Source: Planctomycetota bacterium
GTDB lineage: Bacteria > Planctomycetota > UBA8742 > UBA2392
Assembly: GCA_020848275.1 (NCBI GenBank)
Contig: JADLAK010000012.1
Coordinates: 37,301-101,300 of the forward strand
Reading direction: 5' to 3'
Length of the DNA: 64,000 bases
Shown: one piece after another, positions 1 to 44,892 of the stretch
How the letters are laid out: the number at the start of each line of letters is the position of its first letter
Position numbering within the stretch: the first letter of the stretch is position 1
Position numbers and translations under genes: made by a program
Notes under the pieces: model-generated
What the model was told of the DNA's origin: nothing
The model's database searches: none
What the model saw: the letters and a program-made list of their open reading frames with translations, nothing else

Positions 1-1050
1 CGCGAGATCCAGGGCAAGGAGCCGTTGATCCAGGTGGAAGTGACGCCGGAGGTGATCGCGCGCGTGATCTCGGACTGGACCGGCGTGCCGATCGGCAAGA
101 TGGTGCAGGACGAAGCCAGCGCGCTGCTCAGCTTCGAAAGCACCATCGGCAAGCGCATCAAGGGGCAAGACCACGCCCTGCAAATCGTGGGCAAGGGCGT
201 TCGTGCCGCAAAGTCAGGTTTAAAAAATCCGCGTACCCCGATGGATGTCTTTCTTTTCGTGGGTCCCTCCGGCGTCGGCAAGACCGAAACCGCGCTGGGT
301 GTCGCCGACCTGCTGTTTGGCGGCGAGCGCTACATGACGACCATCAACATGTCGGAATTCCAGGAGAAGCACACCGTTAGCCGCCTGATCGGCTCGCCCC
401 CGGGCTACGTCGGTTACGGCGAGGGCGGCATGCTGACAGAGGCCGTGCGCCAGCGGCCGTATTCGGTGGTTTTGCTGGACGAGGTTGAAAAGGCCGACCC
501 GGAAGTGCTCAACCTGTTCTATCAGGTCTTTGACAAGGGCACGCTCAACGACGGCGAAGGCCGCGAAGTGGATTTCAAAGACACCGTGATCTTCCTGACC
601 AGCAACCTTGCGACGGATCTAATCACGCAGGCGGGCAGCGGCGGGCAAAAGCCCGCGCTCGACGATTTAATCGGCCTGATTCGTCCCGCGCTCAGCAAGC
701 ACTTCAAGCCGGCGCTGCTGGCGCGCATGACGATTGTGCCGTTCTATCCCATCGACCAGGACGCAATGAAGGACATCACGCGCCTCAAGCTGGGCCTGCT
801 GCAGAACCGCCTGAAGGAAAGCCACAAGATGACGCTCTCCTTCGACGACAAGGTCGTCGAGGCGATTGCGGCTCGCTGCACGGAGGTCGAGACCGGCGCG
901 CGCAACGTCGACCACATCCTTGCGGGCACACTGCTGCCGAAGATTTCAACCGAGCTGCTTGAACAGATGAGCAAAGGCCCGCTGCCGGAGAAACTCACGG
1001 TTGGGCTCGATGGCTCGGGGGACTTCAGCTTCACGTTCGGCAAAAAGTAA
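1..1050 (+). CDS. clpV: ClpB-family AAA+ ATPase, C-terminal part (second AAA+ domain plus C-terminal domain), truncated at the window start. Most likely T6SS ClpV/TssH given the vgrG gene that follows.
   Basis: The reading frame is open from base 1. Walker A GPSGVGKTE is present, as is the ClpB D2 signature (sensor and arginine-finger region) VVLLDEVEKADPEVLNLFYQVFDKGTLNDGEGREVDFKDTVIFLTSNL. The stop is at 1048-1050. Confidence 0.8.
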   Translation, partial: REIQGKEPLIQVEVTPEVIARVISDWTGVPIGKMVQDEASALLSFESTIGKRIKGQDHALQIVGKGVRAAKSGLKNPRTPMDVFLFVGPSGVGKTETALGVADLLFGGERYMTTINMSEFQEKHTVSRLIGSPPGYVGYGEGGMLTEAVRQRPYSVVLLDEVEKADPEVLNLFYQVFDKGTLNDGEGREVDFKDTVIFLTSNLATDLITQAGSGGQKPALDDLIGLIRPALSKHFKPALLARMTIVPFYPIDQDAMKDITRLKLGLLQNRLKESHKMTLSFDDKVVEAIAARCTEVETGARNVDHILAGTLLPKISTELLEQMSKGPLPEKLTVGLDGSGDFSFTFGKK

Positions 1051-1251: not shown

Positions 1252-3750
1252 ATGGCTGAAAGTGCGATCAACAAACGCGTGATGTCCTTCAGCTCCGGCG
1301 CAGTTGCCGATGACTCGCTGCTGCTTACCAAGCTGGCGGGCTCTGAGGAACTTTCGCGGCTCTACAGCTACGAGCTTGAGCTGATCTCCGACAAAGTCGA
1401 CCTCGACTTCGACAAACTGCTCAAGGAACCCGCAAAGGTCGGCATCAAGCAGGGCGTCAAGCTCGCGGGCGAAAACCGCCGCGGCGCGCAGACACTCAAG
1501 ATCCACGGCATGCTCTCGAAATTCGAACAGATCGAACGCCGGCTCGACCTCGTGCGCTACAAGGCCACCCTGGTGCCGCGGTTGTGGAAACTCGGCCTGA
1601 CTTACGAAAGCCGCGTCTTCCAGGACAAGACGGTCAAGGAAATCATCGCCGACGTGATGAAAGAGGCGGGTTTCACCACCGACGATTACGAAATCAAGGC
1701 CGGCAACGGCTACGCCAAGCGCGAGTTTGTCGTCCAGTACGAGGAAACCGACCTCGATTTCCTTTACCGCTGGCTCGAGCACGAGGGCATTTTCTTCTTC
1801 TTCGACAACAGCGGCGAGAAGGACAAGATCATCTTCGGCGACGCCGTCGGCCACTACCCGCGCATCCAGGGCAACTCGAATATTCCCTATCGCCCGACGG
1901 CCGACAACAACGCCCGGAGCGAGGGCGCGGAGTCCGAAAGCGCGTCGACGGACTGGTTCAAGGAAGAAGTCATCAACTTGTTTTCCTGCCGCCAGAGCGT
2001 GATTCCCAGGGAGGTCGTGCTGAAGGATTACAACTACCGCAAGCCGTCGGAAACGCTGCGCGTGGTCACGCAGGTAAGCCAGAACGGCGTCGGCCGCGTC
2101 TACGAATACAACAACCACTACAAGACCGAAGACGAGGGCAAGGCGCTTGGCAACATCCGCGCCCAGGAAATCGTGTGTCGCGAGAAAATCTTCAGCGGCG
2201 CTTCCGACTGCCGGGCGTTTCGCGGCGGCGCGACCTTTGAACTGCAGGAGCACTACCGCAACGATTACAACCGCGAGTACCTGATTACCCACGTCTCGCA
2301 TAACGCCGAACAGTCGATCCAGTTCAGCAGCGGCAACACCCTGGGCGCCTCCTACAACAATGCGTTTGTCTGCATCCCCTCGGACAGGCTCTTCCGGCCC
2401 GAGCGCACCACCAAATGGCCCGCCATCCACGGCATCATCAACGCGACCGTCGACGCCGCAGGCAGCGGCGACTACGCCGAAATCGACGACCAGGGCCGCT
2501 ACAAGGTCAAGTTGCCCTTTGACCTCTCGGACAAGAAGGATGGCAAGGCCTCGCGCTATCTTCGCATGGCCCAGCCGTATTCGGGTGAGGGTATGGGCAT
2601 GCACTTCCCGCTGCACAAGGGCACGGAAGTCCTCGTCACCTGCGTGGACGGCGACCCCGACCGCATGGTGATTTCGGCGTCGATCCCCAACCCGGAGACC
2701 GAAAGCCCTGTTACATCAGACAACCAGACGCAGAGCCAGATCCAGACCGGCGGCGGCAATGTGATCACGATGGAGGACCAGGACGGCAGCCAGCACGTGA
2801 CCATCGAGTCGCCTACACAGGGCACGGTGATTCGCATCGGCTCCAATTCCGGCGAAGAAGGGGAGGGCAGCGCCGGCGAGGGAGTGCATATCGCGACCGA
2901 CGGCGACCACACGCAGGAAACCGGCGGCGACGAGAACAAGACCATCGAAGGCGACGAAACCACGATCATTGAGGGCGACAAGGAAGAAACCATCAAGGGC
3001 AACAAGGAGGAGTCCGTCGACGGCCACGTCAAGGAGTTCATCGACAAGGGCACCGAAGCCTACAACATGGGTAATTTCTCCGAGTACATCCTTGGCATGA
3101 ACTCTTCAACGGTGCTTGGCATGGAGGCCTCGACGGTTGCGCCGCTCAAGCGCGACGGCGTCTACGGCATTTCCATGGAGTCCGTCCTGGGCATGACGGT
3201 TGAGACTTTCAAAGGCCTCAAGCTGTCCCACGAAAAAGGCATCTCGTTTGAAGTCTCGGACGTCAAGAAGTACGAGTTCGAGGCCCACCACGGCAAGAAA
3301 GTGCCCGGCATCTTCGCAACGATCGCCGGCATCGGCAAATACATCTACAACCGCCACAAGCTGATGTCGCAGGCCAGCACGCAGATTGCCGCCGCTGCGG
3401 CGCTGCAAGTTGAGGCCGGCAACATGGAAATGTCGGCGCTTCGGGCCGAGGCCATTTTTGGTTCGGACCACACGGACTGCACCGAGATGCGCCAGCGCGC
3501 CCAGCAACTCACGCAGGAAGCGACACTGTGGGAAGCCAAAGCGGCGGCGACCAAGATTTCGGCCCTCAACATCGACATTGGCGCAGGCGCCTTCACTATC
3601 GTCGGCGGCGGCGCTCCGCCGGTGGTGCCGCCCGCGGTGCCCAAGGTTGCCGCGGCTTCTGTCGCTGCCGAAAGCGCGGCTGCTGTCGCCGAAAACGCTG
3701 CGGCGGAGGCTGCTGCCAACGTCGCAAGCGCCGCAGCACCCAGCCAGTAA
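1252..3750 (+). CDS. vgrG: T6SS spike protein VgrG (TssI), 832 aa. It has a gp5-like C-terminal beta-helix repeat region and a further Ala-rich C-terminal extension of about 250 aa.
   Basis: N-terminal gp27-like VgrG signature (SFSSGAVADDSLLLTKLAGSEELSRLYSYELELIS). The central part is typical of VgrG. Octapeptide-like repeats GDETTIIEGDKEETIKGNKEES are present. The RBS is GAGGGA and the gene sits directly downstream of clpV. Confidence 0.85.
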   Translation: MAESAINKRVMSFSSGAVADDSLLLTKLAGSEELSRLYSYELELISDKVDLDFDKLLKEPAKVGIKQGVKLAGENRRGAQTLKIHGMLSKFEQIERRLDLVRYKATLVPRLWKLGLTYESRVFQDKTVKEIIADVMKEAGFTTDDYEIKAGNGYAKREFVVQYEETDLDFLYRWLEHEGIFFFFDNSGEKDKIIFGDAVGHYPRIQGNSNIPYRPTADNNARSEGAESESASTDWFKEEVINLFSCRQSVIPREVVLKDYNYRKPSETLRVVTQVSQNGVGRVYEYNNHYKTEDEGKALGNIRAQEIVCREKIFSGASDCRAFRGGATFELQEHYRNDYNREYLITHVSHNAEQSIQFSSGNTLGASYNNAFVCIPSDRLFRPERTTKWPAIHGIINATVDAAGSGDYAEIDDQGRYKVKLPFDLSDKKDGKASRYLRMAQPYSGEGMGMHFPLHKGTEVLVTCVDGDPDRMVISASIPNPETESPVTSDNQTQSQIQTGGGNVITMEDQDGSQHVTIESPTQGTVIRIGSNSGEEGEGSAGEGVHIATDGDHTQETGGDENKTIEGDETTIIEGDKEETIKGNKEESVDGHVKEFIDKGTEAYNMGNFSEYILGMNSSTVLGMEASTVAPLKRDGVYGISMESVLGMTVETFKGLKLSHEKGISFEVSDVKKYEFEAHHGKKVPGIFATIAGIGKYIYNRHKLMSQASTQIAAAAALQVEAGNMEMSALRAEAIFGSDHTDCTEMRQRAQQLTQEATLWEAKAAATKISALNIDIGAGAFTIVGGGAPPVVPPAVPKVAAASVAAESAAAVAENAAAEAAANVASAAAPSQ

Positions 3751-3767
3751 CCAGACACTGGAGCAGA

Positions 3768-6170
3768 ATGCAGATTGTGCTCGACAATTGCTTGCGTGTC
3801 GGCTGGACGGTGGGCAAATGGGCGCCGCCGCAACTGGCAGCGGCGTTTTTCGTCAAGGGCACTTTCAACCTGCTTCACGGCAAGACGGCTACGCCCTCCG
3901 ACAAGCCCGAGATCGTGTGCGGCGACGTGGCCGCGACGCAGGCCGAGCAAAGCAGCCTGCGCTATGCGTCGGATTTCGCGCCCATGAAAGTGAGAGCCGA
4001 TGTGCTGGTGGCTGGCACGGCGTACACGCCCGAGGGCAAACCCGCCACAGCGGTGCGCGCGGGGTTCGGCCTCGGCCCCGCCGACAAAAAGAGCATCCTT
4101 GAAAAGCGCCTGACGATCACTGGCCCGCGCGTCTGGAACAAAGGCCTCCTCACCAGCAAACCCGGCGAGCCGCAACCTTTTTTGAGCCTGCCGCTGATTT
4201 ACGAAAACGCATTTGGCGGGGCGGGCGTACCGACCAACCCCGTGGGCAAGGGCGTGGGCGACCTGATGCCGCAAATTGAGCTTGAGGGCGCGCCGGTGTT
4301 GTCGCCGCGCGACAAACACGCGCCCGCGGGTTTTGCGCCGCTGCACCCGACGTGGCATCCGCGCAACCACAAGCTTGGCCATTATGATGGCGCGTGGCTG
4401 AAGGAACGCTGGCCGTGGCTACCCAAGGATTTCAACTGGGAACATTTTAATGCCGCGCCGCGCGATCAGCAGGTTGACGGCTATCTGCGCGGCGATGAGA
4501 CGATTTATTTCCAGAACATGCACAAGCAGCACGCGCATTACTCCAGCGCGCTGCCGGGGCTGCGCGTGCGCCTGTTCGTGCAGGACAGGCACAAGGACGC
4601 ATCGCGCTTTCGCGAGGTGCCGGTCAAACTCGACACGTTGTGGGCCGACATGGACGCCGAAAAGCTCGTGCTGGTCTGGCGCGGGCAGGCGGAAGTCCAA
4701 ACGCTGAAGGCCCGGGAACTCGAGTACGTCTTTGCAGTCGTCGAGCCCTTGGCCGAAACGCCAAAGCCGATGTCGTACTGGCAAGCCGAACTCGCCCGCC
4801 GCATGGCACAGCCGGCGCCGCCCGCGCCCGAGGTCAAGGAACGCGAGAAGGACCCGACGCCGACGGTCGGCGCGCTGATGCAGGAGATGGACCCCTTGAT
4901 GACCGAGATGCACAAGCAGGAAGCGGTGATGGATGCGCACCTCGCCAACAACATCAAACAGCTTCAGGCCCGCAACCTGCCGACGACGGGGATGTCGACC
5001 AAGCCGCCGTACGGCCCGCAATCGCTGGCCGAAGTCCCGGCGTTCCTCAAGCAGATGGAAACGCTGGCCAACGCCAACCAGGCGGCGCATCTGGCGCAGC
5101 TTGCATCCAGCGGCAAAGCCGCCGCGTTCAAGTTGCCCGCCGAGATGACGCAGCCCATCCGCATCGAGCTTCCGCCCGAGCTCGCCAAGGCCGCGCAGAT
5201 TCAGCAGCAGGCAGGCAGGGTTCCGGCCGCTGCACCGCCGCAGCCCGACGACAACATCTGGACGCGCGAACGCGTGCTGGCCCACGCCAAGGCGGGCAAA
5301 CCCTTTGCGCGCGTGCGGCTGGGCGCCGTCGATCTTTCGGGCGTTGATCTTTCCGGCGCGAATCTGGCCTTTGTGCGCCTGAACAACGTCAAGCTCGCGG
5401 GCGCCAACCTTAGCGGCGCTGATATGACGGGCGCGGAGTGCGGCGCCGGCAACTTCGCGGGCGCGAAGCTGGTGCGCTGCAACCTGCACGGCGCGACGTT
5501 CACCGGCGCGGTACTTGCAGGCGCGGACCTCAGCGAGGCGCGGCTGGACGACACCAACTTCGTGAAGGCCGACCTTGCCAAGGCGAAACTCGCGGGCGCG
5601 CGCGGCTACGGCACGTATCTCGCCGAGGCCAACCTGGCGGAGATCAATGGCGCGGGTGTGAACATCGAGGGCGGCAACTTCACGGGCGCGATGGCCGAGA
5701 AAGCAAACTTCAAGGGCTCGAGGCTGATCGGTTGCGGCTTCATGCAGGCCAACGCCAAGGGCGCGGATTTTTCCGGCAGCGACCTGGCCAACTTCCGCGG
5801 CCAGAGGGGCAACTTCGAAGAAACGAAGTTCGCGCGCTGCAAGCTCGGCAATTCGGCCTGGACCGAGGCGAACCTCAAGCGCGCCGATTTCACGCACGCC
5901 GACCTGCCCAATTCGCTGTTTGATTTCGTTGTGCTGGAGGGCGCGTTGCTGGGCGCTGCCGACGCGACAGCCAGCAACTTCGCCGATTCGAACCTGAAGG
6001 CCGCGAAATTCGCCGTCGCCAACGGCATGCGCTGCAGCTTTGACCGCAGCGATCTTTCGCTGGTCGATTTCCAGGGCGCGAACCTTTATTGCGCCGAATT
6101 CTGGGACGCCGTGACCGTCGGCGCGGATTTCCGCAACGCCAATGTCGCCCGGACAACACTCTCGAAATGA
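3768..6170 (+). CDS. DUF2169-like N-terminal domain fused to a long pentapeptide-repeat (A(D/N)LxG) C-terminal domain. Candidate T6SS adaptor/cargo.
   Basis: The ATG at 3768 lies 17 nt after the vgrG stop. Roughly the first 480 aa are non-repetitive. About residues 520-800 are continuous pentapeptide repeats (ANLAFVRLNNVKLAGANLSGADMTGAEC...). The known vgrG-DUF2169-PRP-DUF3540-DUF4150 context supports the call. Confidence 0.6.
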   Translation: MQIVLDNCLRVGWTVGKWAPPQLAAAFFVKGTFNLLHGKTATPSDKPEIVCGDVAATQAEQSSLRYASDFAPMKVRADVLVAGTAYTPEGKPATAVRAGFGLGPADKKSILEKRLTITGPRVWNKGLLTSKPGEPQPFLSLPLIYENAFGGAGVPTNPVGKGVGDLMPQIELEGAPVLSPRDKHAPAGFAPLHPTWHPRNHKLGHYDGAWLKERWPWLPKDFNWEHFNAAPRDQQVDGYLRGDETIYFQNMHKQHAHYSSALPGLRVRLFVQDRHKDASRFREVPVKLDTLWADMDAEKLVLVWRGQAEVQTLKARELEYVFAVVEPLAETPKPMSYWQAELARRMAQPAPPAPEVKEREKDPTPTVGALMQEMDPLMTEMHKQEAVMDAHLANNIKQLQARNLPTTGMSTKPPYGPQSLAEVPAFLKQMETLANANQAAHLAQLASSGKAAAFKLPAEMTQPIRIELPPELAKAAQIQQQAGRVPAAAPPQPDDNIWTRERVLAHAKAGKPFARVRLGAVDLSGVDLSGANLAFVRLNNVKLAGANLSGADMTGAECGAGNFAGAKLVRCNLHGATFTGAVLAGADLSEARLDDTNFVKADLAKAKLAGARGYGTYLAEANLAEINGAGVNIEGGNFTGAMAEKANFKGSRLIGCGFMQANAKGADFSGSDLANFRGQRGNFEETKFARCKLGNSAWTEANLKRADFTHADLPNSLFDFVVLEGALLGAADATASNFADSNLKAAKFAVANGMRCSFDRSDLSLVDFQGANLYCAEFWDAVTVGADFRNANVARTTLSK

Positions 6171-8215
6171 CCGCCCTCGACCCCAGATTCGCAGCAGCCG
6201 CCAAGGGCAAGCCCGGTGCGCCCATTGGCGGCGACGAATTCCTCGCCGCGCTGGCAAAGGGCGAAAGCGTCGAGGCGCGGCAGTTGATCGGCGTTTCAAT
6301 GCAGGGCGCGGACCTGCGCGGCCGCAACCTTAGCGGTTGCATGATCGACAACGTTGATTTCAGCGGCGCGAATCTTGCTGGCGCAAACCTCAGCGACTGC
6401 ATGCTGACGCTGTGCAAGCTCGGCAACGCCAATCTTTCGGGCGCAAATCTCAAGGACGTGTTGTGGGCGCAATGTGAATTCAACGGCGCGAATATCGAGG
6501 GCGCGACGCTCGACAAGTCGCTCTGGGCGGAATGCAAGGGAGTGAACCTGCGCGCGCGCGGCGCCAAGGGCCCGGCGCGCATGGCCCAGTGTGAATTTCC
6601 CGACGCGGATTTTACGGGCGCGAGTTTTGACGGCATGGTCGTGGTCAAAAGCACGTTTACCGGCGCAAAGTGCGGCGGCGCGAGTTTCATCGACGCATGG
6701 CTGCCGGATTGCGCCTGGGCCGGGTCAGATTTCACCGGCGCCGATTTGTCGAAGGCCAGCTTCGAGGGCGGCGACATGGCGGGCGCAAAGTTTGAGAACG
6801 CCAACCTGAACTGGACCGTGCTTTCCTACTGCAACCTGGAGAAAGCGTCGTTCCAGGGCGCGAAGTTCGTGCGCTCCCAGTTGGACAACTGCAAGCTCGC
6901 GGGCGCAACCGGCTGGCCAAAATTGATCGAGAACATCGATTTCGAGGACGCCGACCTCGCGGGCCAGGCATTCAAGGAAATCGAGTTCAACCGCTGCAAT
7001 TTCAGCGGCGGCAAACTCGGCAAGATCGACTTCAGCGGCGCGCGCGTGTTGTCCTCGAATTTCAACAAGGCCGACCTGAAACAGGCTAACTTTGAAGGCG
7101 CATCGCTCGAGACCTGCCGCTTCGGCGAGGCCGACCTGACCGGCGCAAACCTTAGAAAAGCCAAGCTGCCCGGCTCGCGCCTGCGCAGCGCGCAACTTGC
7201 GGAAGCCGTGTACACCGGCGCGTCCTTTTGGGGCGCCGACGTCAGCCTTGCGCACTTCAACCCCCGTTCGTTGATTGCGGGCGCGATCGACGGCGCGCGC
7301 TTTGAAGGCGCAAATTTCGATGGCGTCGATTTCTCCGGCCGCAATCTGACCAACACCGCGTTCATCAAGTGCTCGCTGGTCGGCGCAAAGTTCGCCAACG
7401 CGCAGCTCACCAGCGCCAATTTCTCCGGCAGTGACCTCTCGGGCGCGGATCTTTCGGGCACGCGCAACGAGGCCGCGGGTTTTGAGAAGAGCAAACTCGT
7501 CAACGCGGATTTCAGCGGAGCGGTCATGTCCAGCGCGTTCTTTGCCGAGGCGCAACTTCAGGGTGCGAAATTCCACGGCACGCGCATGGAACGCACGACG
7601 CTGAAGGATTCGACCTTTGCGCAGGCGAGTGTCGAAAGGGCCTCGCTGCGCCAGTGCAACCTGCAGGGGCTGAATTTTGCCAGGCGCAGTTTTGCGGGCT
7701 GCGACTTTTCCGGCTCGGATTTCAGCGGCAGTGAGATGTCGGGCGTCGACCTTTCCGGCTGCGCGCTCGAAAACGCTTCGTTCAACGCAACCATCCTAAA
7801 AGACGCGAAGTTCCGCGATGTCATCGGCAAGACAATCAAGTTCGCCGATGCACAGCTTGGCGGCGCAAGCTTCGAGAACGCGCAGATCAGCGGCTCGTTC
7901 TTTGCCGGCGCATATGCGCAGAAATGCAACTTCACCGGCGCTGACCTGCGCATGTGCATCTTCGAAAAGGCCGACCTGCGCAACAGCCGCCTCGCCAACG
8001 CGCGCCTCAATTACGCCGACCTCAGCTACGCGCACCTCGACCTCAGCGATTTTTCCGGAGCCGACGTGCAGGGCGCGAATCTGCACGGCGTCGGCGAGCA
8101 GGGCACGATCTGGCGCAACGCCAACACCAGGGGTGCGCGCCGCAGCGACGACGAACGCCTGAAAGCGGACGCTTTCAAGCCGCCAAGGCCCAAGGTTACG
8201 GGAGACAAGGTATGA
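6167..8215 (+). CDS. Pentapeptide repeat protein of about 682 aa. Nearly the whole length consists of A(D/N)LxG repeats.
   Basis: The start codon overlaps the upstream stop (ATGA at 6167-6170). There are more than 100 consecutive pentapeptide units (GADLRGRNLSGCMIDNVDFSGANLAGANLSD...). Confidence 0.8.
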   Translation: MTALDPRFAAAAKGKPGAPIGGDEFLAALAKGESVEARQLIGVSMQGADLRGRNLSGCMIDNVDFSGANLAGANLSDCMLTLCKLGNANLSGANLKDVLWAQCEFNGANIEGATLDKSLWAECKGVNLRARGAKGPARMAQCEFPDADFTGASFDGMVVVKSTFTGAKCGGASFIDAWLPDCAWAGSDFTGADLSKASFEGGDMAGAKFENANLNWTVLSYCNLEKASFQGAKFVRSQLDNCKLAGATGWPKLIENIDFEDADLAGQAFKEIEFNRCNFSGGKLGKIDFSGARVLSSNFNKADLKQANFEGASLETCRFGEADLTGANLRKAKLPGSRLRSAQLAEAVYTGASFWGADVSLAHFNPRSLIAGAIDGARFEGANFDGVDFSGRNLTNTAFIKCSLVGAKFANAQLTSANFSGSDLSGADLSGTRNEAAGFEKSKLVNADFSGAVMSSAFFAEAQLQGAKFHGTRMERTTLKDSTFAQASVERASLRQCNLQGLNFARRSFAGCDFSGSDFSGSEMSGVDLSGCALENASFNATILKDAKFRDVIGKTIKFADAQLGGASFENAQISGSFFAGAYAQKCNFTGADLRMCIFEKADLRNSRLANARLNYADLSYAHLDLSDFSGADVQGANLHGVGEQGTIWRNANTRGARRSDDERLKADAFKPPRPKVTGDKV

Positions 8216-8739
8216 GCGACAACATTGGCATCGAACTCGGCACGTTGCTTACGCAGGCCCGCGTACTCGACGTTGAAGGCCGCGCGCTGAAGCTCCAGGC
8301 CGGCGAGCGCATCATCGCCGCAAATCTGGCGCTGCCTTACCCGTACAAGCCGCAAGTGGGCGACACGGTACTGGTGATTGCGCAGGGTGAAAGCGCCTGG
8401 GTGATCGGCGTGATCGAGGGAACGGGCCTGACCGCGTTTTCCGCGCCCGCGAACCTTGAGCTGCGCGCAACCCGCGGCCGCATCGTGCTCAATGCGCGTG
8501 ATGAAATCGAAATCAAGGCGCGCGACGTCAACATCAACGCCGACAACGCGAGCACGTTTGCGAAAAACCTGACCCAACAGGTCGAGAACCTTGACACCAG
8601 TGTCGCGGGGCTGGCGCTATTGCGTGCACGCGAAGAACGCACCGAGATCGAGCAAAGCAGCATCCTGCGCGCGGAAAACATCAACCAGCGCGCGCGCAAA
8701 GAAGTGAAAATCGACGGCGAGATCATCAACCTCGGTTAG
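8212..8739 (+). CDS. DUF3540-like protein, 175 aa (T6SS VgrG-module accessory).
   Basis: ATGA overlap with the upstream PRP stop (8212-8215). Size and position match the DUF3540 member of DUF2169-PRP-DUF3540-DUF4150 modules. No other recognisable motifs. Confidence 0.45.
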
Positions 8740-8748
8740 GAGAACCTA

Positions 8749-9171
8749 ATGGCTGGATTTCCTGTAGCGGTGGGAGGGCCGGGCCAGGCGATGTCCACGG
8801 GCCCGACCGACGTCTGCAAAGTGCCGGCGCCGCCCGCGCCGCCGATCCCGACGCCGTTTCCCAACATCGTGATGCTTGCGATGGTGAACCCGACATCGTG
8901 CAGTCCCAAGGTCAAGATCGAATACCTGCCGGTGCTGGTGGTCGGCAGCGAAATACCGATGTCCAACGGCGACGAAGCCGGCGTCGCCGGCGGCGTCGTC
9001 TCGAGCAAGTTCATTGGCGCCTGCAAGCCCACGTTGGGCTCGATGAAAGTAATGATCGGCGGCAAACCTGTCGTCTACATGACGTGCCTGACCATGCACA
9101 ACGGCATGCCCGCCAACACCGTCGGCCAAGTCCTCGTCGCGGGACAGGTCCGCGTCATGGTCATGGGGTAA
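8749..9171 (+). CDS. PAAR-like (DUF4150-like) small spike-tip protein, 140 aa, with no C-terminal toxin domain.
   Basis: Strong RBS AGGAGA 7 nt upstream. The sequence is Gly/Val-rich and PAAR-like ([21 protein letters not shown]...[23 protein letters not shown]). It is the last gene of the vgrG module. Confidence 0.5.
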
Positions 9172-9173
9172 AC

Positions 9174-11111
9174 ATGGTTCCGGTCAAAGCCCATATCGCC
9201 GCAAAGGCGCACATCCGCAGCCTCGCCGAGTACCAGCAGCTTTATCGCGAATCCGTCGACAACCCCGCCGCGTTCTGGCGCAAACAGGCCGAGCACATCA
9301 CGTGGTTTTCGCCGCCGCAGAGCATCGTCGATATCGACCGCGATGAAATCGACTTTGCCTGGTTCGCCGAGGGCAAACTCAACGCCTGCTTTAACTGCGT
9401 CGACCGCCACGCCCGCGCCACGCCCGACAAAACCGCGATCATCTGGGCCAAGGACGAACCCGGCCAGTACGAGCGCATCAGCTTTCTTCAGCTCAAACAC
9501 GACGTGGCGCGCATCGCCAACGTGCTGATCGCCCACGGCGTCAAGCGCGGCGACCGCGTCTGCATTTACTCGCCGATGATGCCGCTGACCGCCGCGGCGA
9601 TGCTGGCCTGCGCGCGCATCGGCGCCGTACACTCGGTCGTGTTTGCCGGATTTTCCGCGGAAAGCCTGCGCGACCGCATCCTCGACGCGGGCTGCAAGGT
9701 CGTGATCACCGCCAATGAAGGTCTGCGCGGCGGCAAGAAGATTCCTTTGAAAGCAACGGTCGATGAAGCCTGCAAAGGCCTTGAGATCGTGCAGACTGTG
9801 CTGGTCGGCCGCCGCACGGATGCCGGCGTCCCGATGCAGAAGGGCCGCGACCTTTGGCTCGACGAGGAAATGGCGCGCCAGCGTTCGACTTGCCCCGTCG
9901 AGTGGATGGACGCGGAATCGCCGCTGTTCGTGCTCTACACCTCGGGCAGCACCGGCAAGCCCAAGGGCGTGCTGCACACCACGGGCGGCTACCTGGTCTA
10001 CGCGGCTACCACGCACAAATACGTCTTCGACGCGCACCCGCACGACATTCACTTCTGCGCCGCCGACGTGGGCTGGGTGACGGGCCACAGTTACATCGTC
10101 TACGGACCGCTGGCCAACGGCATCACGACCGTGATGTTCGAGAGCACGCCGGTCTATCCCGACGCCGGGCGCTACTGGCAGACGGTCGACGACCTGCAGG
10201 CCACGATTTTCTACACCGCGCCGACGGCGCTGCGCGCCATTGCGCGCGCGGGCGACGAACACGTCAAGAAGGCCAGGCGCACGAGCCTGCGCGTGCTGGG
10301 CTCTGTCGGCGAACCGATTAATCCGGAAGTCTGGAAGTGGTACCACGACGTCGTCGGCGATGGCCGCTGCGCACTCGTGGACACATGGTGGCAGACGGAA
10401 ACCGGCGGCATTTTAATTTCGCCGCTGCCCGGTGCGACGCCATGCAAACCGGGTTCGGCGACGCTGCCGTTTTTTGGCGTGCAGCCCGTGATCGTCGACA
10501 ACGACGGCAAGGAACTCACGGGCAATCCCGTGTCGGGCAATCTTTGTTTGAATGGCTCTTGGCCGGGACAAGCCCGAACCATCTACGGGGATCATGCCCG
10601 GTTTAAACAAACCTATTTCAGCGCATTTAAAAGCCTCTACTTCACGGGCGACGGCTGCAAGCGCGACGAAGACGGCTACTACTGGATCACCGGCCGCGTC
10701 GACGACGTCATCAACGTCGCGGGCCACCGTCTGGGCACCGCCGAAATCGAATCGGCGCTGGTCGCCCACCCCGCCGTCGCCGAAGCTGCTGTTGTCGGCT
10801 TCCCGCACGATATTAAAGGCACGGGCATCTACGCCTACGTGCAGATTACGGCCGAGTACGCAAAAAAACCTGCGGCCGAAGTCCAGAAACTGCTCGCCGA
10901 TCAGGTGCGCAAGGCGATCGGCGCGATCGCCACACCCGACCGCATCCAGATCGTGCCGGGGCTGCCAAAGACGCGCTCGGGCAAGATCATGCGCCGCATC
11001 CTGCGCAAAGTTGCGGCGGGCGAATACACCGAACTCGGCGACCTGACGACGCTCGCCGACCCCGGCGTCGTCGAAAAAATCGTCGAAGAACACAAACGGC
11101 AAAAAACTTAA
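9174..11111 (+). CDS. acs: Acetyl-CoA synthetase (AMP-forming).
   Basis: [15 protein letters not shown]-binding motif. Acs-specific N-terminus ([16 protein letters not shown]). C-terminal conserved Lys in [11 protein letters not shown]. Confidence 0.9.
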
Positions 11112-11192: not shown

Positions 11193-11621
11193 ATGAACAC
11201 CTACGACATTCACCTCGATCTGAAATACAAGCCGCTGGAGGTGTGCGACGCGGGCAAGATCGCCGACAACTGCGGCAAGGATTGGTGGAACCAGTCGCTG
11301 GTGAACGTGAACGAGAGCGTGATTCGCGTCGGCGTGTTCCTTGGCGAATTTCACTGGCACAAACACGACCGCGAAGACGAATTCTTCTGGGTGATCGACG
11401 GCTTGCTGCTGCTCGACCTCGAAACCGAAGAGGGTGACCCGTTTGGCAGCCACAAACTCAAGCCGGGTGAATCGCCCAAGCCCGGGAAGTTCCGCACCGT
11501 CGAGCTGTCGCCGCGCCAGGGCCTGATGGTGCCCAAGGGTGTGGTGCACCGCACCCGCGCCAAAGTTCGCACCACTGTGTTGATGGTCGAACCCGCCACC
11601 GTAAAACCGACAGGGGACTAG
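11193..11621 (+). CDS. Small cupin-domain protein, 142 aa.
   Basis: Cupin_2-like two-His motifs (FHWHKHDREDEFFWVIDG ... PKGVVHRT). Confidence 0.55.
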   Translation: MNTYDIHLDLKYKPLEVCDAGKIADNCGKDWWNQSLVNVNESVIRVGVFLGEFHWHKHDREDEFFWVIDGLLLLDLETEEGDPFGSHKLKPGESPKPGKFRTVELSPRQGLMVPKGVVHRTRAKVRTTVLMVEPATVKPTGD

Positions 11622-11706
11622 CGTAACTATTGATTTCAGAAGCTTTTGCGGCGTCGTGCCGTGTCATGGTGAAAGCATCGAGAAATTACGTCTATTCTTC
11701 CGATGG

Positions 11707-11734
11707 TTGACTGGAGGGTTGAAGGCCATATACT
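11707..11734 (+). promoter_or_regulatory. Sigma70-like promoter (TTGACT-N16-TATACT) upstream of the ImmA-like gene, inside the low-GC islet.
   Basis: TTGACT at 11707-11712 and TATACT at 11729-11734. An AGAAGGG RBS precedes the ATG at 11790. Confidence 0.35.
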
Positions 11735-11789
11735 TTCGCGCCACAATAGTTGGCAGTTGGGTAGGCGCCGGACAGAAGGGTGTAAAACC

Positions 11790-12212
11790 ATGTTGAATGC
11801 AGTCGATGTTCATGAAATTTGTGATCAGCACAATATCGACGTTCAAGAAATTGAATTAGGCGAATGTGCAGGATTCATTTCCTGCACGTCTGATAAGTGG
11901 GTCATTTCGGTAAACAAGGGTGATCCGCTAGTTCGACGTCGTTTCACAATAGCGCACGAATTGGGACATTTTTTTCTCCACTTAAGTCGGGGCTCGGTTC
12001 GAATTGATCGACCGCTCCATCGAAGCATTAATGCGTCGAACTCCGCGCAGGAGCGAGAGGCAAATGCATTTGCTGCAGCTTTGTTGATGCCCGCCAATGT
12101 CTTGCAAGCTGCTGTGAATGAAGGAAAGCCGACAAACGTCTTGGCGAGGGAGTTGTTGGTTTCCGCGTCTGCGCTGAGTTGGAGGCTTCAAGACCTTGGC
12201 CTGAAGAAGTGA
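11790..12212 (+). CDS. ImmA/IrrE-family (DUF955, COG2856) zinc metallopeptidase, about 140 aa.
   Basis: HEXXH motif HELGHFFLH followed by ...EREANAFAAALLMP, typical of ImmA/IrrE. It lies in a lower-GC segment. Confidence 0.7.
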   Translation: MLNAVDVHEICDQHNIDVQEIELGECAGFISCTSDKWVISVNKGDPLVRRRFTIAHELGHFFLHLSRGSVRIDRPLHRSINASNSAQEREANAFAAALLMPANVLQAAVNEGKPTNVLARELLVSASALSWRLQDLGLKK

Positions 12213-12254
12213 TATCTGACAAACGGCCAAATACGCAGTGCCGCCAGAAGTCGT

Positions 12255-14639
12255 TTGTGGCGGCACTTTTTATTGGGTTTGCCAATGCTTGATCAAGAAT
12301 TGATTCGCGGCGTCGAGGCAATCTCAGATTCGTCCAACGAAGCTGAGGTCGAAGACAAGGTCGTTCTCCCTCTTCTGAAACGATTTGGGATAACGGCGAA
12401 TGACTTCATTCCGCAAGGCGAAATTCCGCGACTAGATATCGCCAAGGGAGTGGAAGTCAAGAGAGCTTTTCTTCCGGACTACCTGCTGACTTTTTTCGGG
12501 CTCTATGTTGCAGTGATTGAGGCGAAGTCTCCCAGCGAGTCGGTGCAAAATGCATATAGAGAGGCGTGTTTCTATTCAACCGAACTTCACCGTCAACTTG
12601 GCACATTAACAGATGTCAAGGTTGCCGTGGGCTGCAACGGTCGCGAAATTTGGGTAGGAACTCCTGAAACTTCCGACAAGGACGCCAAGAAATACGATGT
12701 CCGCAAATTGGTATCTAGCCCCACACTTCTGGCCGAACTCGAGGCGTGGATTGGCCGAAAAACATTAAATGACCATGCCAACGAGCGAAGACTGGCACGT
12801 CGCCTTGGGGAGGCTTCAAACGTTAGGACCGACCTCTTTCTTGGTGCGGCCATTCCCAAGAATGAGCACAACTCGTTCTATCCGGCCATTCGACCGTTGC
12901 TGAATACATATTTTGGCAATCTAAGCCTCCTGCGCGATGAGCTGTTCCTAAAGGGGTATTGCGACCCGTCTGAACAGCAGCGAACGCGCGAAGAAGAAGA
13001 TGTTTTGCGTGATCGCCCCCCTGCCCGTTCAGACGCCAAGTTGCTCACGCGACATAACGCTGATGAGTTGGTGGGCGACATAGTTAGGCACTTTCATTCA
13101 TACCATACAGGTGAAGACACCTCCTTTGAGCCGGATCGATTCTTTCTCCTCCTCGGCGCGGCGGGTGCGGGCAAGTCCACATTTACTTGGTGGTACACGA
13201 AGTTCTCCGTCGATCACAAAAAATGTGTCCCGATATTGATTGATGGGACGAAGGCCCCTCAAGACTCGGAACCACTTTTCGCGCACACGTTGCAAAAGCT
13301 CACGAGTACGGTTCACGAATTCCTAGTTGCCAATGTTTACGGAGGTGATCGACAACGGGCTATTCGATCTATATTGCGCGAATCTTGGGAGAAGGACTAC
13401 TACGAGTTCTTTCATCCGAAGATTGAAAAGCCAGATTACTTGGATCAGCACTTTCCAAAGTTAGCAAAGCCGATAAAGGAAAGTGATGAGGTGTTTTTGC
13501 CATTTCTGCTTGAGGATCTACATCGCAACGGGCTTGTCGCCATGCTCATCGTTGACAATTTAGACCTAACCAACGTCGCAAGACAGCTAGATGGGTTTAA
13601 ACTGTTTCGGCCGTTTTCCCAACAATTCGAGGTTCTTATCGGCCTCGTCCTTCGGGACGAGACATGGCAATTTTACGCAAAACGCAAACCTTTCGAGGGA
13701 TTTCATAGCTCTCCAACTTTTTACATCGCCGGACCGTCCCTATCTGAATTGATCGACAAGCGTGTGGAAGTGATGACTGAAGGCCTAGGCCAAACTGGGA
13801 AAAGGAATGTGGTGATCCCATTCGGGGCCAACAAGAACATGAAGTTAGAGCTTTCGATGAAGGACACCGCAGAACTAATTGCAAAGGTCCATGAAGGACT
13901 CTCTAAGCCAGACGACCTGCATTTGATTGAAGGCGTCTGTGGGAAGAACAATCGCAATGGTCTAGACGCGTTTGCTGTTGTCTGTACATCTTCGTACGTC
14001 GAGGAGATCAATCTTCTTCAGCCGACTTTCAAGGTCGGAGCGTTTGACCCCTCGCGAGCGCAGCTGTTGAAAGCGCTGATTTGCGGGGATAGTAAGTACT
14101 ACGATTCACATTCGAGCTTTGTGGCGAATGCCTATACATTTGGCCAGGGAACAGACGGGTCAAGCATTTTTGTGGTACTCCACATACTTCGAGAACTGCT
14201 TTTTAAAGCCGGAGGCACTCCTGGATTCGGAAAGGGCTATGTGCCCCTTACGGACCTACAGGAGTTGTTGATGAAGTGGCTTCCGCTCGATGTTTCCGAG
14301 TTGCGTCGCATTACATTTGGAATCGTACGGACGGGGATTTGGCAAGTAGACACGTTTGAGCCAACATCCGAATCAGATTTCAATGCGGTTCGAATTCAAG
14401 AGCAGGGATTGTATCTGTTGAAGACCTTGTACAAGGATGACACGTACCTCGAATGCATGGCATTCGATACCGCAATAGCGGATCGATTCACGTTGGGAGA
14501 GTTGGTAGAGGCGTTCAAAAGCGATCGACGCTGCTCCGACCTCTTTTTGACCTACCTAAAGGGCAAAGAAGTGATTGAAGTTGAACACGCGTCAGCTAGA
14601 GGATTCAAGCTCGATCCAAGCCGAAAGAAATTCATGTAG
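12255..14639 (+). CDS. Fusion of an HsdR_N-like PD-(D/E)xK nuclease domain and a NACHT/STAND-like P-loop NTPase with a C-terminal uncharacterised domain (794 aa). Candidate defence protein. The true start may be the ATG at 12285 (MLDQ...).
   Basis: N-terminal HsdR_N-type motif (VVLPLLKRFGI...PDYLLTFFGLYVAVIEAKSP). Walker A LLLGAAGAGKST. Walker B-like hhhhD motif MLIVDNLDL (NACHT-like). Low GC. Immediately upstream of tRNA-Leu. Confidence 0.6.
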   Translation: MWRHFLLGLPMLDQELIRGVEAISDSSNEAEVEDKVVLPLLKRFGITANDFIPQGEIPRLDIAKGVEVKRAFLPDYLLTFFGLYVAVIEAKSPSESVQNAYREACFYSTELHRQLGTLTDVKVAVGCNGREIWVGTPETSDKDAKKYDVRKLVSSPTLLAELEAWIGRKTLNDHANERRLARRLGEASNVRTDLFLGAAIPKNEHNSFYPAIRPLLNTYFGNLSLLRDELFLKGYCDPSEQQRTREEEDVLRDRPPARSDAKLLTRHNADELVGDIVRHFHSYHTGEDTSFEPDRFFLLLGAAGAGKSTFTWWYTKFSVDHKKCVPILIDGTKAPQDSEPLFAHTLQKLTSTVHEFLVANVYGGDRQRAIRSILRESWEKDYYEFFHPKIEKPDYLDQHFPKLAKPIKESDEVFLPFLLEDLHRNGLVAMLIVDNLDLTNVARQLDGFKLFRPFSQQFEVLIGLVLRDETWQFYAKRKPFEGFHSSPTFYIAGPSLSELIDKRVEVMTEGLGQTGKRNVVIPFGANKNMKLELSMKDTAELIAKVHEGLSKPDDLHLIEGVCGKNNRNGLDAFAVVCTSSYVEEINLLQPTFKVGAFDPSRAQLLKALICGDSKYYDSHSSFVANAYTFGQGTDGSSIFVVLHILRELLFKAGGTPGFGKGYVPLTDLQELLMKWLPLDVSELRRITFGIVRTGIWQVDTFEPTSESDFNAVRIQEQGLYLLKTLYKDDTYLECMAFDTAIADRFTLGELVEAFKSDRRCSDLFLTYLKGKEVIEVEHASARGFKLDPSRKKFM

Positions 14640-14684
14640 GGCTCACACGCGGCTCGGAATGCGCTTTGTCGGGTCACAATCATA

Positions 14685-14768
14685 CGGACGTGGCGGAATG
14701 GCAGACGCGCCAGACTTAGGATCTGGTGAGGCAACTCGTGTGGGTTCAAGTCCCACCGTCCGTACCAT
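14685..14768 (+). tRNA. tRNA-Leu (anticodon TAG), type II with long variable arm, CCA encoded.
   Basis: Manual fold. Acceptor ACGGACG/CGTCCGT. D-arm GCG-GAATGGCAGA-CGC. Anticodon stem CCAGA/TCTGG with loop CTTAGGA. 13-nt variable arm. T-arm GTGGG-TTCAAGT-CCCAC. Discriminator A, then CCA. Closely resembles E. coli tRNA-Leu. Confidence 0.85.
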
Positions 14769-14813
14769 TCGACTCGGAAGGCGCTCGTCAGAGCGACTTC
14801 CGAGTCGAATGGT
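14766..14813 (+). terminator. 16-bp perfect inverted repeat (CCATTCGACTCGGAAG ... CTTCCGAGTCGAATGG) with a 16-nt loop, overlapping the tRNA-Leu CCA end. No U-tract follows.
   Basis: Seen directly in the sequence. Function is uncertain (terminator or processing structure). Confidence 0.3.
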
Positions 14814-15130
14814 ATCCTGAGCGAGCGCAGCGAGAAAAAAGCAAAGGCGCGGAGTGCCGGTATTTCTTTAGCATCCACCGCAAGGTGGGTGTTTTCGTCG
14901 GAGAAAACTGGCCGAGGCGCGAAAGCGCCGACACCCGGTGCCGCCGCTACGCGGCTTGGCATCAATTCTGCCCAACCGAAACCACCGCCTTTCGGCGGTG
15001 GCTAAACAGATGACGGCGCTACGCGCCTCACAACTTTTCCGCCGGACCGCTTCTGTCCTCGCGAAGCTTCGCTGAAGCTTCTGCTCGGCCCCGCTCCCTG
15101 TGGTCGCCACGCGCGGCTCGTAAAAGGCCG

Positions 15131-43532: not shown

Positions 43533-43761
43533 CCTCTTGACGCGTCAATAACGCCGTGATGGGTCCGAAATAACTTTCATCGCAACCTGTCCAAGCTTTT
43601 GGACGCGGCGCCCGGCCGCGTTCAAAATTTCGAGCGCGTCGCATCACAAAACAGCCGCCGGCGTCCGCAACCGCCGGGCGCCGCGGCTGATTTCCATTTG
43701 GCATCCATTGCGCTCTCCCAGCCTCAACAACTTCACAGGCTCTTTTGGGGAGGGTTCGGCA

Positions 43762-44892
43762 ATGAACCGCCCAGGCTGGTTGATGGCCGTTTGCGCTTTG
43801 ACATGCAGCGCCTGCATCGTGCTCAGTTGCGACAAAGTCAGACCTGAAATATCCACTTCTCCCGCTCCCGTGGCACAACCGGCCGATGGTCCCGCCATCG
43901 CCGTTTTCGAGGGCGCCCTCGGCCTGGGTGCGATCGCCAACGGCGCGCCAGCCGCCAACGCGCGCGATTTTGGCGCGCGCGACATTGCGGCGGGGCCCGG
44001 CAACCCCGTCACTATCGTTATCGAGAATTCCGGCGCCGCGGATTTGTCGCTGGGCGCGCCGGCGCTGGCCGGCCAGGGCGGCGAGTTCCTGCTCGATGCC
44101 GCGTCGATGCTCACCTTGCTGACGCCTGGCGCCAACACCGCTTTCACCGTCGCCTTCGACCCGGCGACGGCGGGCCAGAAAACCGCGACGGTGTCGTTCA
44201 CGCACAACGGCGCCAACTCGTCGACGCCGTTTTCCTTCAGCGTCACGGGCACCGGCGCCGACGGCGCGCTTCCCGCGTTGACGCCGAACATCTCGGTCGC
44301 CGGGCCGGCGTCTGCGCCCGAAGGCAACAGCGGCGCGTCTACGTTTTCTTTCACCGTAAGCCTTAGCGCCGCAACCTCGTTGACGGTTTCCGTGAATTAC
44401 GCGACGACGGACCTGACGGCGTTGGGAGGCCAGGACTACACCGACGCCGCCGGCGTGCTCACGTTCAGCGCCGGGCAGACCTCCAAGGCCGTCGCAGTCT
44501 CAGTGATCGGTGACGCCACCGTCGAGAGCGACGAGCAATTCAGCCTCGACTTGTCCGGCGCCTCCAACGGCGTCATCGTTGGCGCGTCGGCCACCGCGAC
44601 CATCCTCAATGACGATTCCGTCGCCGGGGTGGTTTCCTACGCCGCCGACATCCAGCCGATTTTCAATGCCCGCTGCGTCTCCTGCCACCCCAGCGATGCG
44701 GGACTGAACCTGACGAGTTATTCGCGCGTGATGTCCTCGGGCAAGGTTGTCGCGGGCGACAGCGCGGCCAGCAAGATTTACCGCGTCGTTTCCGGCAGCA
44801 ACCCAAGCATGCCGCCCAGCGGCGGGCCGCTGACCGCCGCGCAAGTGAAAGCCATCAAGGATTGGATCGACGCCGGGGCGCTCAATAACTGA
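43762..44892 (+). CDS. Secreted protein with a Calx-beta domain and a C-terminal Planctomycete-type cytochrome c domain (PSCyt1-like, CxxCH).
   Basis: Calx-beta-like NYATTDLTALGGQDYTDAAGVLTFSAGQTSKAVAVSVIGDATVESDEQFSLDL. ADIQPIFNARCVSCHPSDAGLNLTSY resembles PSCyt1. Confidence 0.55.
   Translation: MNRPGWLMAVCALTCSACIVLSCDKVRPEISTSPAPVAQPADGPAIAVFEGALGLGAIANGAPAANARDFGARDIAAGPGNPVTIVIENSGAADLSLGAPALAGQGGEFLLDAASMLTLLTPGANTAFTVAFDPATAGQKTATVSFTHNGANSSTPFSFSVTGTGADGALPALTPNISVAGPASAPEGNSGASTFSFTVSLSAATSLTVSVNYATTDLTALGGQDYTDAAGVLTFSAGQTSKAVAVSVIGDATVESDEQFSLDLSGASNGVIVGASATATILNDDSVAGVVSYAADIQPIFNARCVSCHPSDAGLNLTSYSRVMSSGKVVAGDSAASKIYRVVSGSNPSMPPSGGPLTAAQVKAIKDWIDAGALNN

Follow-up and report, generated by a model that had tools for sequence, protein, structure and literature searches.

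What does a type VI secretion system (T6SS) spike deliver when none of the genes that accompany it codes for a recognizable toxin? The question is raised by a stretch of 64,000 nucleotides (nt) from contig JADLAK010000012.1 of an uncultured member of the Planctomycetota (hereafter the window, to whose full length all coordinates refer), which starts inside the T6SS gene clpV/tssH. In the initial annotation, the genes following clpV were recognized as a module of the vgrG-DUF2169-pentapeptide-DUF3540-DUF4150 family; its lack of a toxin or immunity gene was presented as a puzzle, with the cargo being either the pentapeptide-repeat proteins (PRPs) themselves or something encoded elsewhere. Our analysis indicates that these five genes very probably encode the spike of a main T6SS cluster and the Class III Tvp chaperones dedicated to it. 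The absence of a toxin is real, but a small toxin-less PAAR protein is a published hallmark of Class III (PMC13373197) and the missing toxin is therefore no anomaly.

The gene boundaries were taken from the sequence itself and from a listing of its open reading frames (ORFs). As had been claimed, five co-directional genes lie downstream of clpV, all on the forward strand and in the order vgrG-tvpAB-tvpB-tvpC-paar: vgrG/tssI (1252–3750; 832 amino acids, aa), the DUF2169::pentapeptide gene tvpAB or tagA/B (3768–6170; 800 aa), the stand-alone PRP gene tvpB or tagB (6167–8215; 682 aa), the DUF3540 gene tvpC or tagC (8212–8739; 175 aa) and the gene for a DUF4150 "PAAR-like/PIPY" cap, paar (tagD/Paar1-like; 8749–9171; 140 aa). 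The tagA/B–tagD naming of the Burkholderia T6SS-5 reportedly goes back to the Shalom 2007 nomenclature. The true start of tvpAB is the ATG at 3768, with a GGAG 4 nt upstream, and not the GTG at 3528 of the mechanically delimited ORF; only 17 nt separate vgrG from tvpAB, too few for an ORF to fit in. Start and stop codons overlap as ATGA at 6167–6170 (tvpAB/tvpB) and 8212–8215 (tvpB/tvpC), exactly where the initial annotation had placed them. It is reasonable to expect from these overlaps that the genes are translationally coupled, as would be normal for proteins that assemble in fixed stoichiometry. None of the five ORFs is disrupted, and they have a high GC content at third codon positions (GC3, 0.79–0.82).

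The Pfam placements of all the module proteins exceed the curated cut-offs. VgrG has the gp27/gp5 core, with matches to Phage_GPD (8e-80), Phage_base_V and, in NCBIfam, TIGR03361 (361 bits). TvpAB combines an N-terminal DUF2169 domain (PF09937, aa 27–305, 1.3e-82, 278 bits against a cut-off of 25), which matches the solved DUF2169 structure 8vth over aa 44–294 (E = 2.2e-16), with C-terminal pentapeptide repeats at aa ~520–770 (PF00805, 1.9e-38; PF13599, 8e-26) that retrieve many pentapeptide β-helix structures from the PDB; the linker of ~200 aa between the two domains had no Pfam match. TvpB is covered by PF00805 over 16 stretches (7.7e-98). Thus, the reported fusion of DUF2169 to a pentapeptide domain, followed by a 682-aa PRP, is borne out. 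TvpC belongs to DUF3540 (PF12059, 9.3e-19, 68.6 bits against a cut-off of 27.9), and an identical protein is named "DUF3540 domain-containing" by NCBI. The terminal protein matches Tox-PAAR-like/DUF4150 (PF13665, 6e-27, 94.3 bits against 31) and, among PDB entries, the PAAR-like N-terminus of the Rhs effector 8qjc (E = 3e-8), and displays a segment P[IV]P[TM]P[FY]PN that is conserved in the window and three relatives (L003, L008 and L012). As the PAAR-like domain fills aa 15–121 of the 140, there is no space for a toxin extension, in line with what had been noted, and toxin domains of the Tde2, Tse7 or PefE type C-terminal to DUF4150 are absent.

Hidden Markov model searches thus placed DUF2169, DUF3540, DUF4150 and Pentapeptide over their cut-offs and detected no toxin domain. 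More broadly, no toxin or immunity family was found in the five module proteins, nor in 41 further ORFs between 11.2 and 64 kb (39 that were selected by composition and are 90 aa or longer, and those at 11703–12212 and 12255–14639). No immunity-like ORF was found adjacent to vgrG, with tvpAB following after 17 nt and the acetate–CoA ligase gene acs starting 2 nt after paar.

The family order asserted in the initial annotation is confirmed by these Pfam placements and by the fact that the arrangement has been named three times in the literature: as tagA/B-tagB-tagC-tagD (PMC6335564), as DUF2169 synteny type C (PMC11883445), and as Class III Tvp (PMC13373197). The last of these is the accessory system VgrG1-TvpAB-TvpB-TvpC-Paar1 of Serratia marcescens Db10 (Monlezun, Earl & Coulthurst, EMBO J 2026; PMC13373197). 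The gene features that define Class III are found in the window: a DUF2169 protein encoded downstream of vgrG, its C-terminal fusion to a PRP domain, a separate TvpB, DUF3540, and a small effector-less PAAR. The fusion of DUF2169 to pentapeptide repeats is the norm of the class and nothing special. The window and the Serratia system share these components in the same order, and both have a long VgrG without a recognizable toxin domain (786 aa before a C-terminal tail in the window; 786 aa in VgrG1). In contrast to Serratia, however, the window lacks a vai1-like (DUF3192) gene or any extra ORF between vgrG and tvpAB; its module follows clpV and closes the core cluster on the 3′ side, rather than opening it; its VgrG has a C-terminal region specific to the clade and ends in a tail of 46 aa rich in Ala and Pro; and its host is a planctomycete, with the TvpC branches at no more than 40% identity, too low for direct BLAST.

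The local order is also identical to that of T6SS-5 in Burkholderia pseudomallei/thailandensis (clpV-5, vgrG-5, tagA/B-5, tagB-5, tagC-5, tagD-5), where TagC-5 is a DUF3540 protein and TagD-5 an effector-less PAAR-like protein of 130 aa (PMC6335564). The two differ in what follows: tssJ-K-L-M come after tagD-5 in Burkholderia, whereas acs comes after paar in the window, which has no tssJKLM. In synteny type C, to which ~37% of all DUF2169 genes belong (Sachar et al., JBC 2025; PMC11883445), the defining elements are a DUF2169 protein extended at its C-terminus by pentapeptide repeats, a pentapeptide gene further downstream, DUF3540, DUF4150 and vgrG; the window module shows no difference from this architecture. 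That survey covered complete genomes, mostly of Pseudomonadota (PMC11883445), whereas the window comes from a planctomycete metagenome-assembled genome (MAG); the Tvp study already lists the phylum of the window among DUF2169 carriers (PMC13373197). The Class I and II Tvp systems (Tap2-Tde2 of A. tumefaciens; PA0096–PA0099/Tse7 of P. aeruginosa) likewise have a DUF2169 chaperone and a DUF4150-type PAAR downstream of vgrG, but their DUF2169 is single-domain, they have no pentapeptide proteins, and their PAAR is fused to a toxin and accompanied by an immunity gene. Further, Class II has DUF6484 in place of the DUF3540 of the window. For this contrast, annotated loci carrying the Class II set of DUF6484, single-domain DUF2169 and PAAR-like genes were inspected in Caballeronia (L014) and Ralstonia (L015).

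The conservation of the module points in the same direction. Relative loci, designated by L numbers, were fetched via TvpC and VgrG homologues, with identities taken from tblastn. As far as the contigs reach, nine of them keep the same gene order: all five genes are present in L007 (from a Myxococcales MAG), L008, L012, L016, L017 and L018, while contig ends cut L001, L003 and L010. L004–L006 carry the same TvpC as L003. In each of the six loci where it is complete (L003, L008, L012, L016, L017 and L018), the PAAR gene codes for 125–140 aa and none has a toxin extension. This comparison of related islands, proposed in the initial annotation, thus returned the same order in nine loci and a short PAAR in six. 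The 4-nt tvpB/tvpC overlap recurs in L001, L003, L004, L008 and L012, and that of tvpAB/tvpB in L001, L003, L004 and L010. Upstream of the module, L012 and L017 have a full tssA-tssB-tssC-hcp-tssE-tssF-tssG-clpV block. Parts of this block are seen in two other loci, tssE-F-G-clpV in L010 and tssC-hcp-tssE-F-G-clpV in L016, where two additional genes precede vgrG. Across the relatives the module block retains 33–80% identity with no frameshifts. Against L008, the identity is 77% for ClpV, 51% for DUF2169, 48% for PAAR, 38% for TvpC, 33% for TvpB and 32% for the PRP domain; judged by this sequence divergence, the accessory proteins are evolving faster than the core.

In the GTDB species representatives, a scan with the five-sequence TvpC alignment recovered a single locus, that of the Myxococcales MAG, and the clade of the window thus appears to be absent from them. 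A tblastn search of plasmids with TvpC gave no match, and the best-ranked annotated DUF2169 plasmid matches that we inspected are Class II-like loci.

How such a spike would be assembled can be pictured from the Serratia system, where TvpAB, TvpB, TvpC and Paar1 are each needed for Hcp secretion via the VgrG1 pathway, TvpC, TvpAB, TvpB and Paar1 assemble into a pre-complex from which VgrG1 then displaces TvpC, and TvpAB and TvpB act as chaperones that were never detected as secreted (PMC13373197). By analogy, the TvpC of the window, as a trimeric OB-fold plus short β-prism mimic of the VgrG tip, would take up the small hydrophobic DUF4150 cap. The DUF2169 domain of TvpAB would shield this cap, while its helices and pentapeptide β-helix would wrap the prism, and TvpB would close the assembly in the manner of a seat belt. 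The pre-complex would then seed the baseplate, where the long VgrG, with ~786 structured residues, would displace TvpC, leading to assembly of the Hcp tube and sheath and to firing; TvpAB and TvpB would be retained in the cell. The authors of the Serratia study suggested that space in the baseplate which effector domains take up elsewhere may here be filled by the bulky Tvp proteins (PMC13373197). In agreement with this idea of pentapeptide chaperones standing in for effector domains, the planctomycete spike has no bolt-on toxin, and its pentapeptide proteins probably occupy that cavity. Our high confidence in the Class III reading covers the domain identities, gene order, overlaps and conservation and the absence of toxin and immunity genes, which are observed, and the pre-complex, the exchange of TvpC for VgrG and the non-secretion of the chaperones, which would hold by analogy with Serratia.

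The role of TvpC is central to this picture. The Serratia TvpC is predicted to be an OB-fold plus β-prism mimic of VgrG without gp27 (PMC13373197). For the window protein, a weak DUF2345 match (5.7e-4, Pfam) was obtained, and the top PDB matches of a TvpC family profile of 66 sequences are spike proteins, all weak (E 0.002–0.13): VgrG 8gra (0.0024) and All3320 (0.0057), followed by gp86, Afp8 and gp5. These alignments take in the OB-fold "PxxGDxV" motif. Further, hhalign of the TvpC family against a VgrG family of 78 sequences placed TvpC ~69–111 on the C-terminal tip of VgrG (58% probability, E = 1e-4). Together, these matches weakly suggest that TvpC may be an OB-fold/β-prism mimic of the VgrG tip.

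Several observations weigh against the Class III reading or parts of it. When TvpC was compared pairwise with the C-terminus of VgrG, neither BLASTP nor a profile run against a single sequence detected any similarity. In an AlphaFold2 (AF2) monomer model of TvpC, built from an alignment of only five sequences, the predicted local distance difference test (pLDDT) score is 56 overall and ~64–76 for an N-terminal β-barrel at aa 12–69, and the C-terminal half is drawn, with low confidence, as a helix and not a β-prism. The last ~200 residues of VgrG are likewise low-confidence in AF2, with a heptad-like or helical stretch followed by the Ala/Pro tail, such that the long prism is only partly shown. 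The clade is thinly sampled: in a library of 1.84 billion proteins only four other sequences have at least 68% identity to TvpC and all else is at or below 40%, while the DUF3540 family comprises 427 clusters at 50% identity. The experimental basis of the mechanism is the Serratia system, from which it would carry over to this planctomycete. Finally, no tssJ/K/L/M turned up in the other 55 kb of the window.

The most distinctive part of the module is the C-terminus of VgrG. Octad repeats of the form [IV]xG[DNM]xxxx, revealed by hydrophobicity autocorrelation at lag 8, run over aa ~550–675 and amount to at least 15 β-prism repeats; they are followed by a clade-specific region (~676–786), with a lag-7 signal at aa ~720–790, and by an Ala/Pro-rich tail (787–832). 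The AF2 model from the 78-sequence alignment has pLDDT of 80–97 up to aa ~620 and below 50 for 632–743 and 764–832, with a helix at 744–769 in between. Near its end the protein has a strand-like tip, KISALNIDIGAGAFTIVGG, beyond which the tail GAPPVVPPAVPKVAAASVAAESAAAVAENAAAEAAANVASAAAPSQ (window 3610–3747) extends past the apparent prism tip as a low-complexity segment of 46 aa, comprising 21 Ala, 7 Val and 6 Pro. This tail is not present in the nearest full-length homologue, P0156 (781 aa), and without it the window protein has 786 aa, equal to Serratia VgrG1. With 832 aa, compared to 749–841 aa in its Tvp-linked relatives, the protein qualifies as a long VgrG by length. VgrG homologues were gathered with aa 1–790 as the query, since aa 600–832 alone recovered nothing, not even the protein itself, probably because Ala-rich words swamped the search. 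The only detectable homologues of the C-terminal region are P0156 (28% identity) and L013 (73%). L013 is a metagenome contig of 1421 bp with a VgrG fragment at ~463–1000, and was the single match with the C-terminal domain in the metagenome contig scan; past the equivalent of aa ~768 (…QAKAAATK) it departs abruptly into unrelated sequence. This break may reflect a rearrangement, an insertion or an assembly chimera.

An option that the initial annotation had left out is that activity resides in the VgrG C-terminus, as in Serratia VgrG1, for which a cryptic depolarising activity of the C-terminus is proposed alongside an adjacent DUF3192 immunity gene, vai1 (PMC13373197), and Burkholderia VgrG-5, with its characterised fusogenic C-terminal domain (PMC6335564). 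Here, the window VgrG would be an "evolved" VgrG, itself the effector, with a membrane-active or otherwise toxic clade-specific region of ~150–230 residues made up of the helical or heptad segment at aa ~720–770, the hydrophobic tip and the tail. Besides these two precedents, the region has no Pfam match in aa 600–832 even at E ≤ 1 and no PDB homologue past aa ~630, its homologues are clade-restricted, and its 73% identity within the clade resembles the 69–79% of TvpC, suggesting purifying selection; the modelled helix and the lag-7 periodicity would also suit such a role. However, no recognizable toxin domain was found, the short gap after vgrG leaves no immunity-like gene comparable to vai1, and DUF3192 was not matched in the 41 downstream ORFs scanned. 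Moreover, the family alignment is glycine-periodic and prism-like almost to the C-terminus, such that the region may be a divergent prism, and P0156 lacks the tail. We therefore consider an effector function of this VgrG unlikely, though it would be compatible with the chaperone model. The narrower proposal that its C-terminus represents a new kind of domain-less, membrane-active effector delivered by a Class III Tvp spike appears decidedly improbable. Were it an effector, the fact that no immunity gene lies next to it would suggest that its target is not bacterial or that self-resistance is encoded at another site.

That the PRPs themselves are the cargo, as secreted DNA mimics like Qnr and MfpA or host-manipulating proteins like the type III secretion effectors PipB and PipB2, is the half of the earlier alternative that did not hold up. 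TvpAB and TvpB are the sole large non-structural proteins of the module, they appear to be translationally coupled to the spike genes, and they do show a likeness to the PipB2, Qnr and MfpA models. This likeness is of a generic repeat kind only: the PipB/PipB2, Qnr, MfpA and HetL equivalog models of NCBIfam reach 101–213 bits or lower against cut-offs of 240–500 (PipB2 170 against 354; Qnr 168 against 240), and the sole named pentapeptide model not far below its cut-off is the generic 113-residue Alr5209 repeat family. The homologues also argue against export: the presence of Serratia TvpAB/TvpB in secretomes was never observed and their requirement for Hcp secretion is an assembly phenotype (PMC13373197), and Burkholderia TagA/B-5 is required for Hcp-5 secretion and was described as "not an effector" (PMC6335564). 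With no immunity gene present either, and with TvpB keeping its length of 682 aa to the residue in three close relatives (L001, L003 and L004), a strictness that suggests a geometric or structural role, we regard secretion of the PRPs as very improbable. Least credible of all is that the module is a decaying or orphan T6SS remnant that no longer functions. The abrupt stop of the cluster at paar, with a housekeeping gene immediately downstream, and the missing tssJ/K/L/M might suggest as much, but the ORFs are intact with high GC3 and conserved start/stop overlaps, the family scores lie far over the cut-offs, and the block is kept without frameshifts in relatives, of which L012 and L017 likewise end at paar despite a full tssA–clpV block upstream.

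Under the Class III Tvp reading, effectors would be delivered otherwise, either bound to Hcp or through auxiliary VgrG islands elsewhere in the genome. That the cargo is encoded elsewhere, the other half of the earlier alternative, is thus plausible. Two relatives offer a possible illustration: in L016 (17668–22439) and L018 (9450–14180), the Class III module is directly followed by a second VgrG of 750 aa, DUF6484 and a single-domain DUF2169. Both loci end before any PAAR gene of this second set, placing its payload beyond contig reach. By gene content, two Tvp classes, Class III and then a Class II-like set, appear to stand in tandem within one T6SS cluster, which fits the loading of effectors elsewhere. 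Overall, the locus pattern fits a default structural main-cluster spike, with the payload arriving via auxiliary modules or Hcp.

Accordingly, the locus is best labelled vgrG-tvpAB-tvpB-tvpC-paar (Class III Tvp), and its lack of toxin and immunity genes should not be taken for an undiscovered cargo mechanism. It adds to the evidence that T6SS loci of the planctomycete type have Class III as the default spike of their main cluster, positioned after clpV and always with a short PAAR, to which a Class II-like DUF6484/DUF2169 module is sometimes appended. As a divergent member of an already described type of module, its significance goes little past annotation. What novelty is left lies in the VgrG C-terminus with its tail and in a conserved abutment of acs; within the module, only the fast-evolving C-terminus of VgrG might conceal something new.

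As the initial annotation had it, the next gene is acs (9174–11111, forward strand; TIGR02188, 964 bits against a cut-off of 725, NCBIfam), with no immunity-like small ORF in between: its ATG at 9174 is 2 nt past the paar stop (junction 9169–9176). In the relatives with a 69%-identical TvpC, acs abuts paar at 8 nt (L003 3880–3889, L005 2545–2554 and L006 2294–2303), and the Acs N-terminus MVPVK is conserved in these and in the window. More distant relatives have other genes there, such as one for a giant PKD protein in L008, a serine dehydratase gene in L017, and genes for a 140-aa unknown protein and a CN-hydrolase in L012. A scan for sigma-70 promoters and terminators around paar/acs found nothing over shuffled expectation. 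From this layout, acs is a neighbour rather than a component of the module and is probably co-transcribed with the spike operon. If the abutment reflects true co-expression, acetate activation could be transcriptionally tied to the T6SS in this lineage.

At the other end, the 3′ part of clpV/tssH (25–1050, forward strand, cut by the window start; AAA_2 1e-53, ClpB_D2-small 7e-16, Pfam) is the final core T6SS gene preceding the spike module, and its product is 76–77% identical to the ClpV of L008 and L010. The 201-nt gap between clpV and vgrG (1051–1251) contains an imperfect nested palindrome or hairpin (1069–1195), which is not part of the protein module. Its inverted repeats pair 1060–1092 with 1172–1213 and 1099–1121 with 1142–1164; as RNA, the gap folds at −83.5 kcal/mol (z = −4.3), and the element occurs only once in the window. 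L010 has a larger hairpin at the same junction (8041–8408; 368 nt, −232 kcal/mol, z = −14.7), for which alignment shows no real homology to that of the window, while L008, L012 and L017 have short clpV-vgrG gaps without a hairpin. As a known RNA the element finds no support, Rfam giving only sub-threshold miRNA-precursor and hairpin shapes. It may be a terminator, a processing site or an independent insertion resembling a miniature inverted-repeat transposable element.

Between 11 and 64 kb, the window is housekeeping apart from a low-GC insert and an McrBC system; further T6SS genes are absent from this part, as are effector and immunity families. In the insert (~11500–15000), the GC content falls from ~0.62 to ~0.50; it includes a Peptidase_M78/IrrE-like gene (11703–12212), a 794-aa ORF (12255–14639) with a weak HSDR_N match, and the only sigma-70-like promoter match in the region (11707–11734). 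The insert was probably acquired horizontally, as a defence or mobile island. The McrBC-type pair (55150–57935, reverse strand) codes for an McrC-like protein (343 aa) and a larger, McrB-like one with an AAA_5 domain (585 aa), with GC3 of 0.63–0.67, below that of the neighbouring genes. Finally, a 433-aa LpxC-FabA/FabZ-like fusion ORF adjoining lpxD (47987–49288) and a protein combining Calx-beta with PSCyt1, the planctomycete cytochrome c domain (43708–44892), are both consistent with a planctomycete contig.

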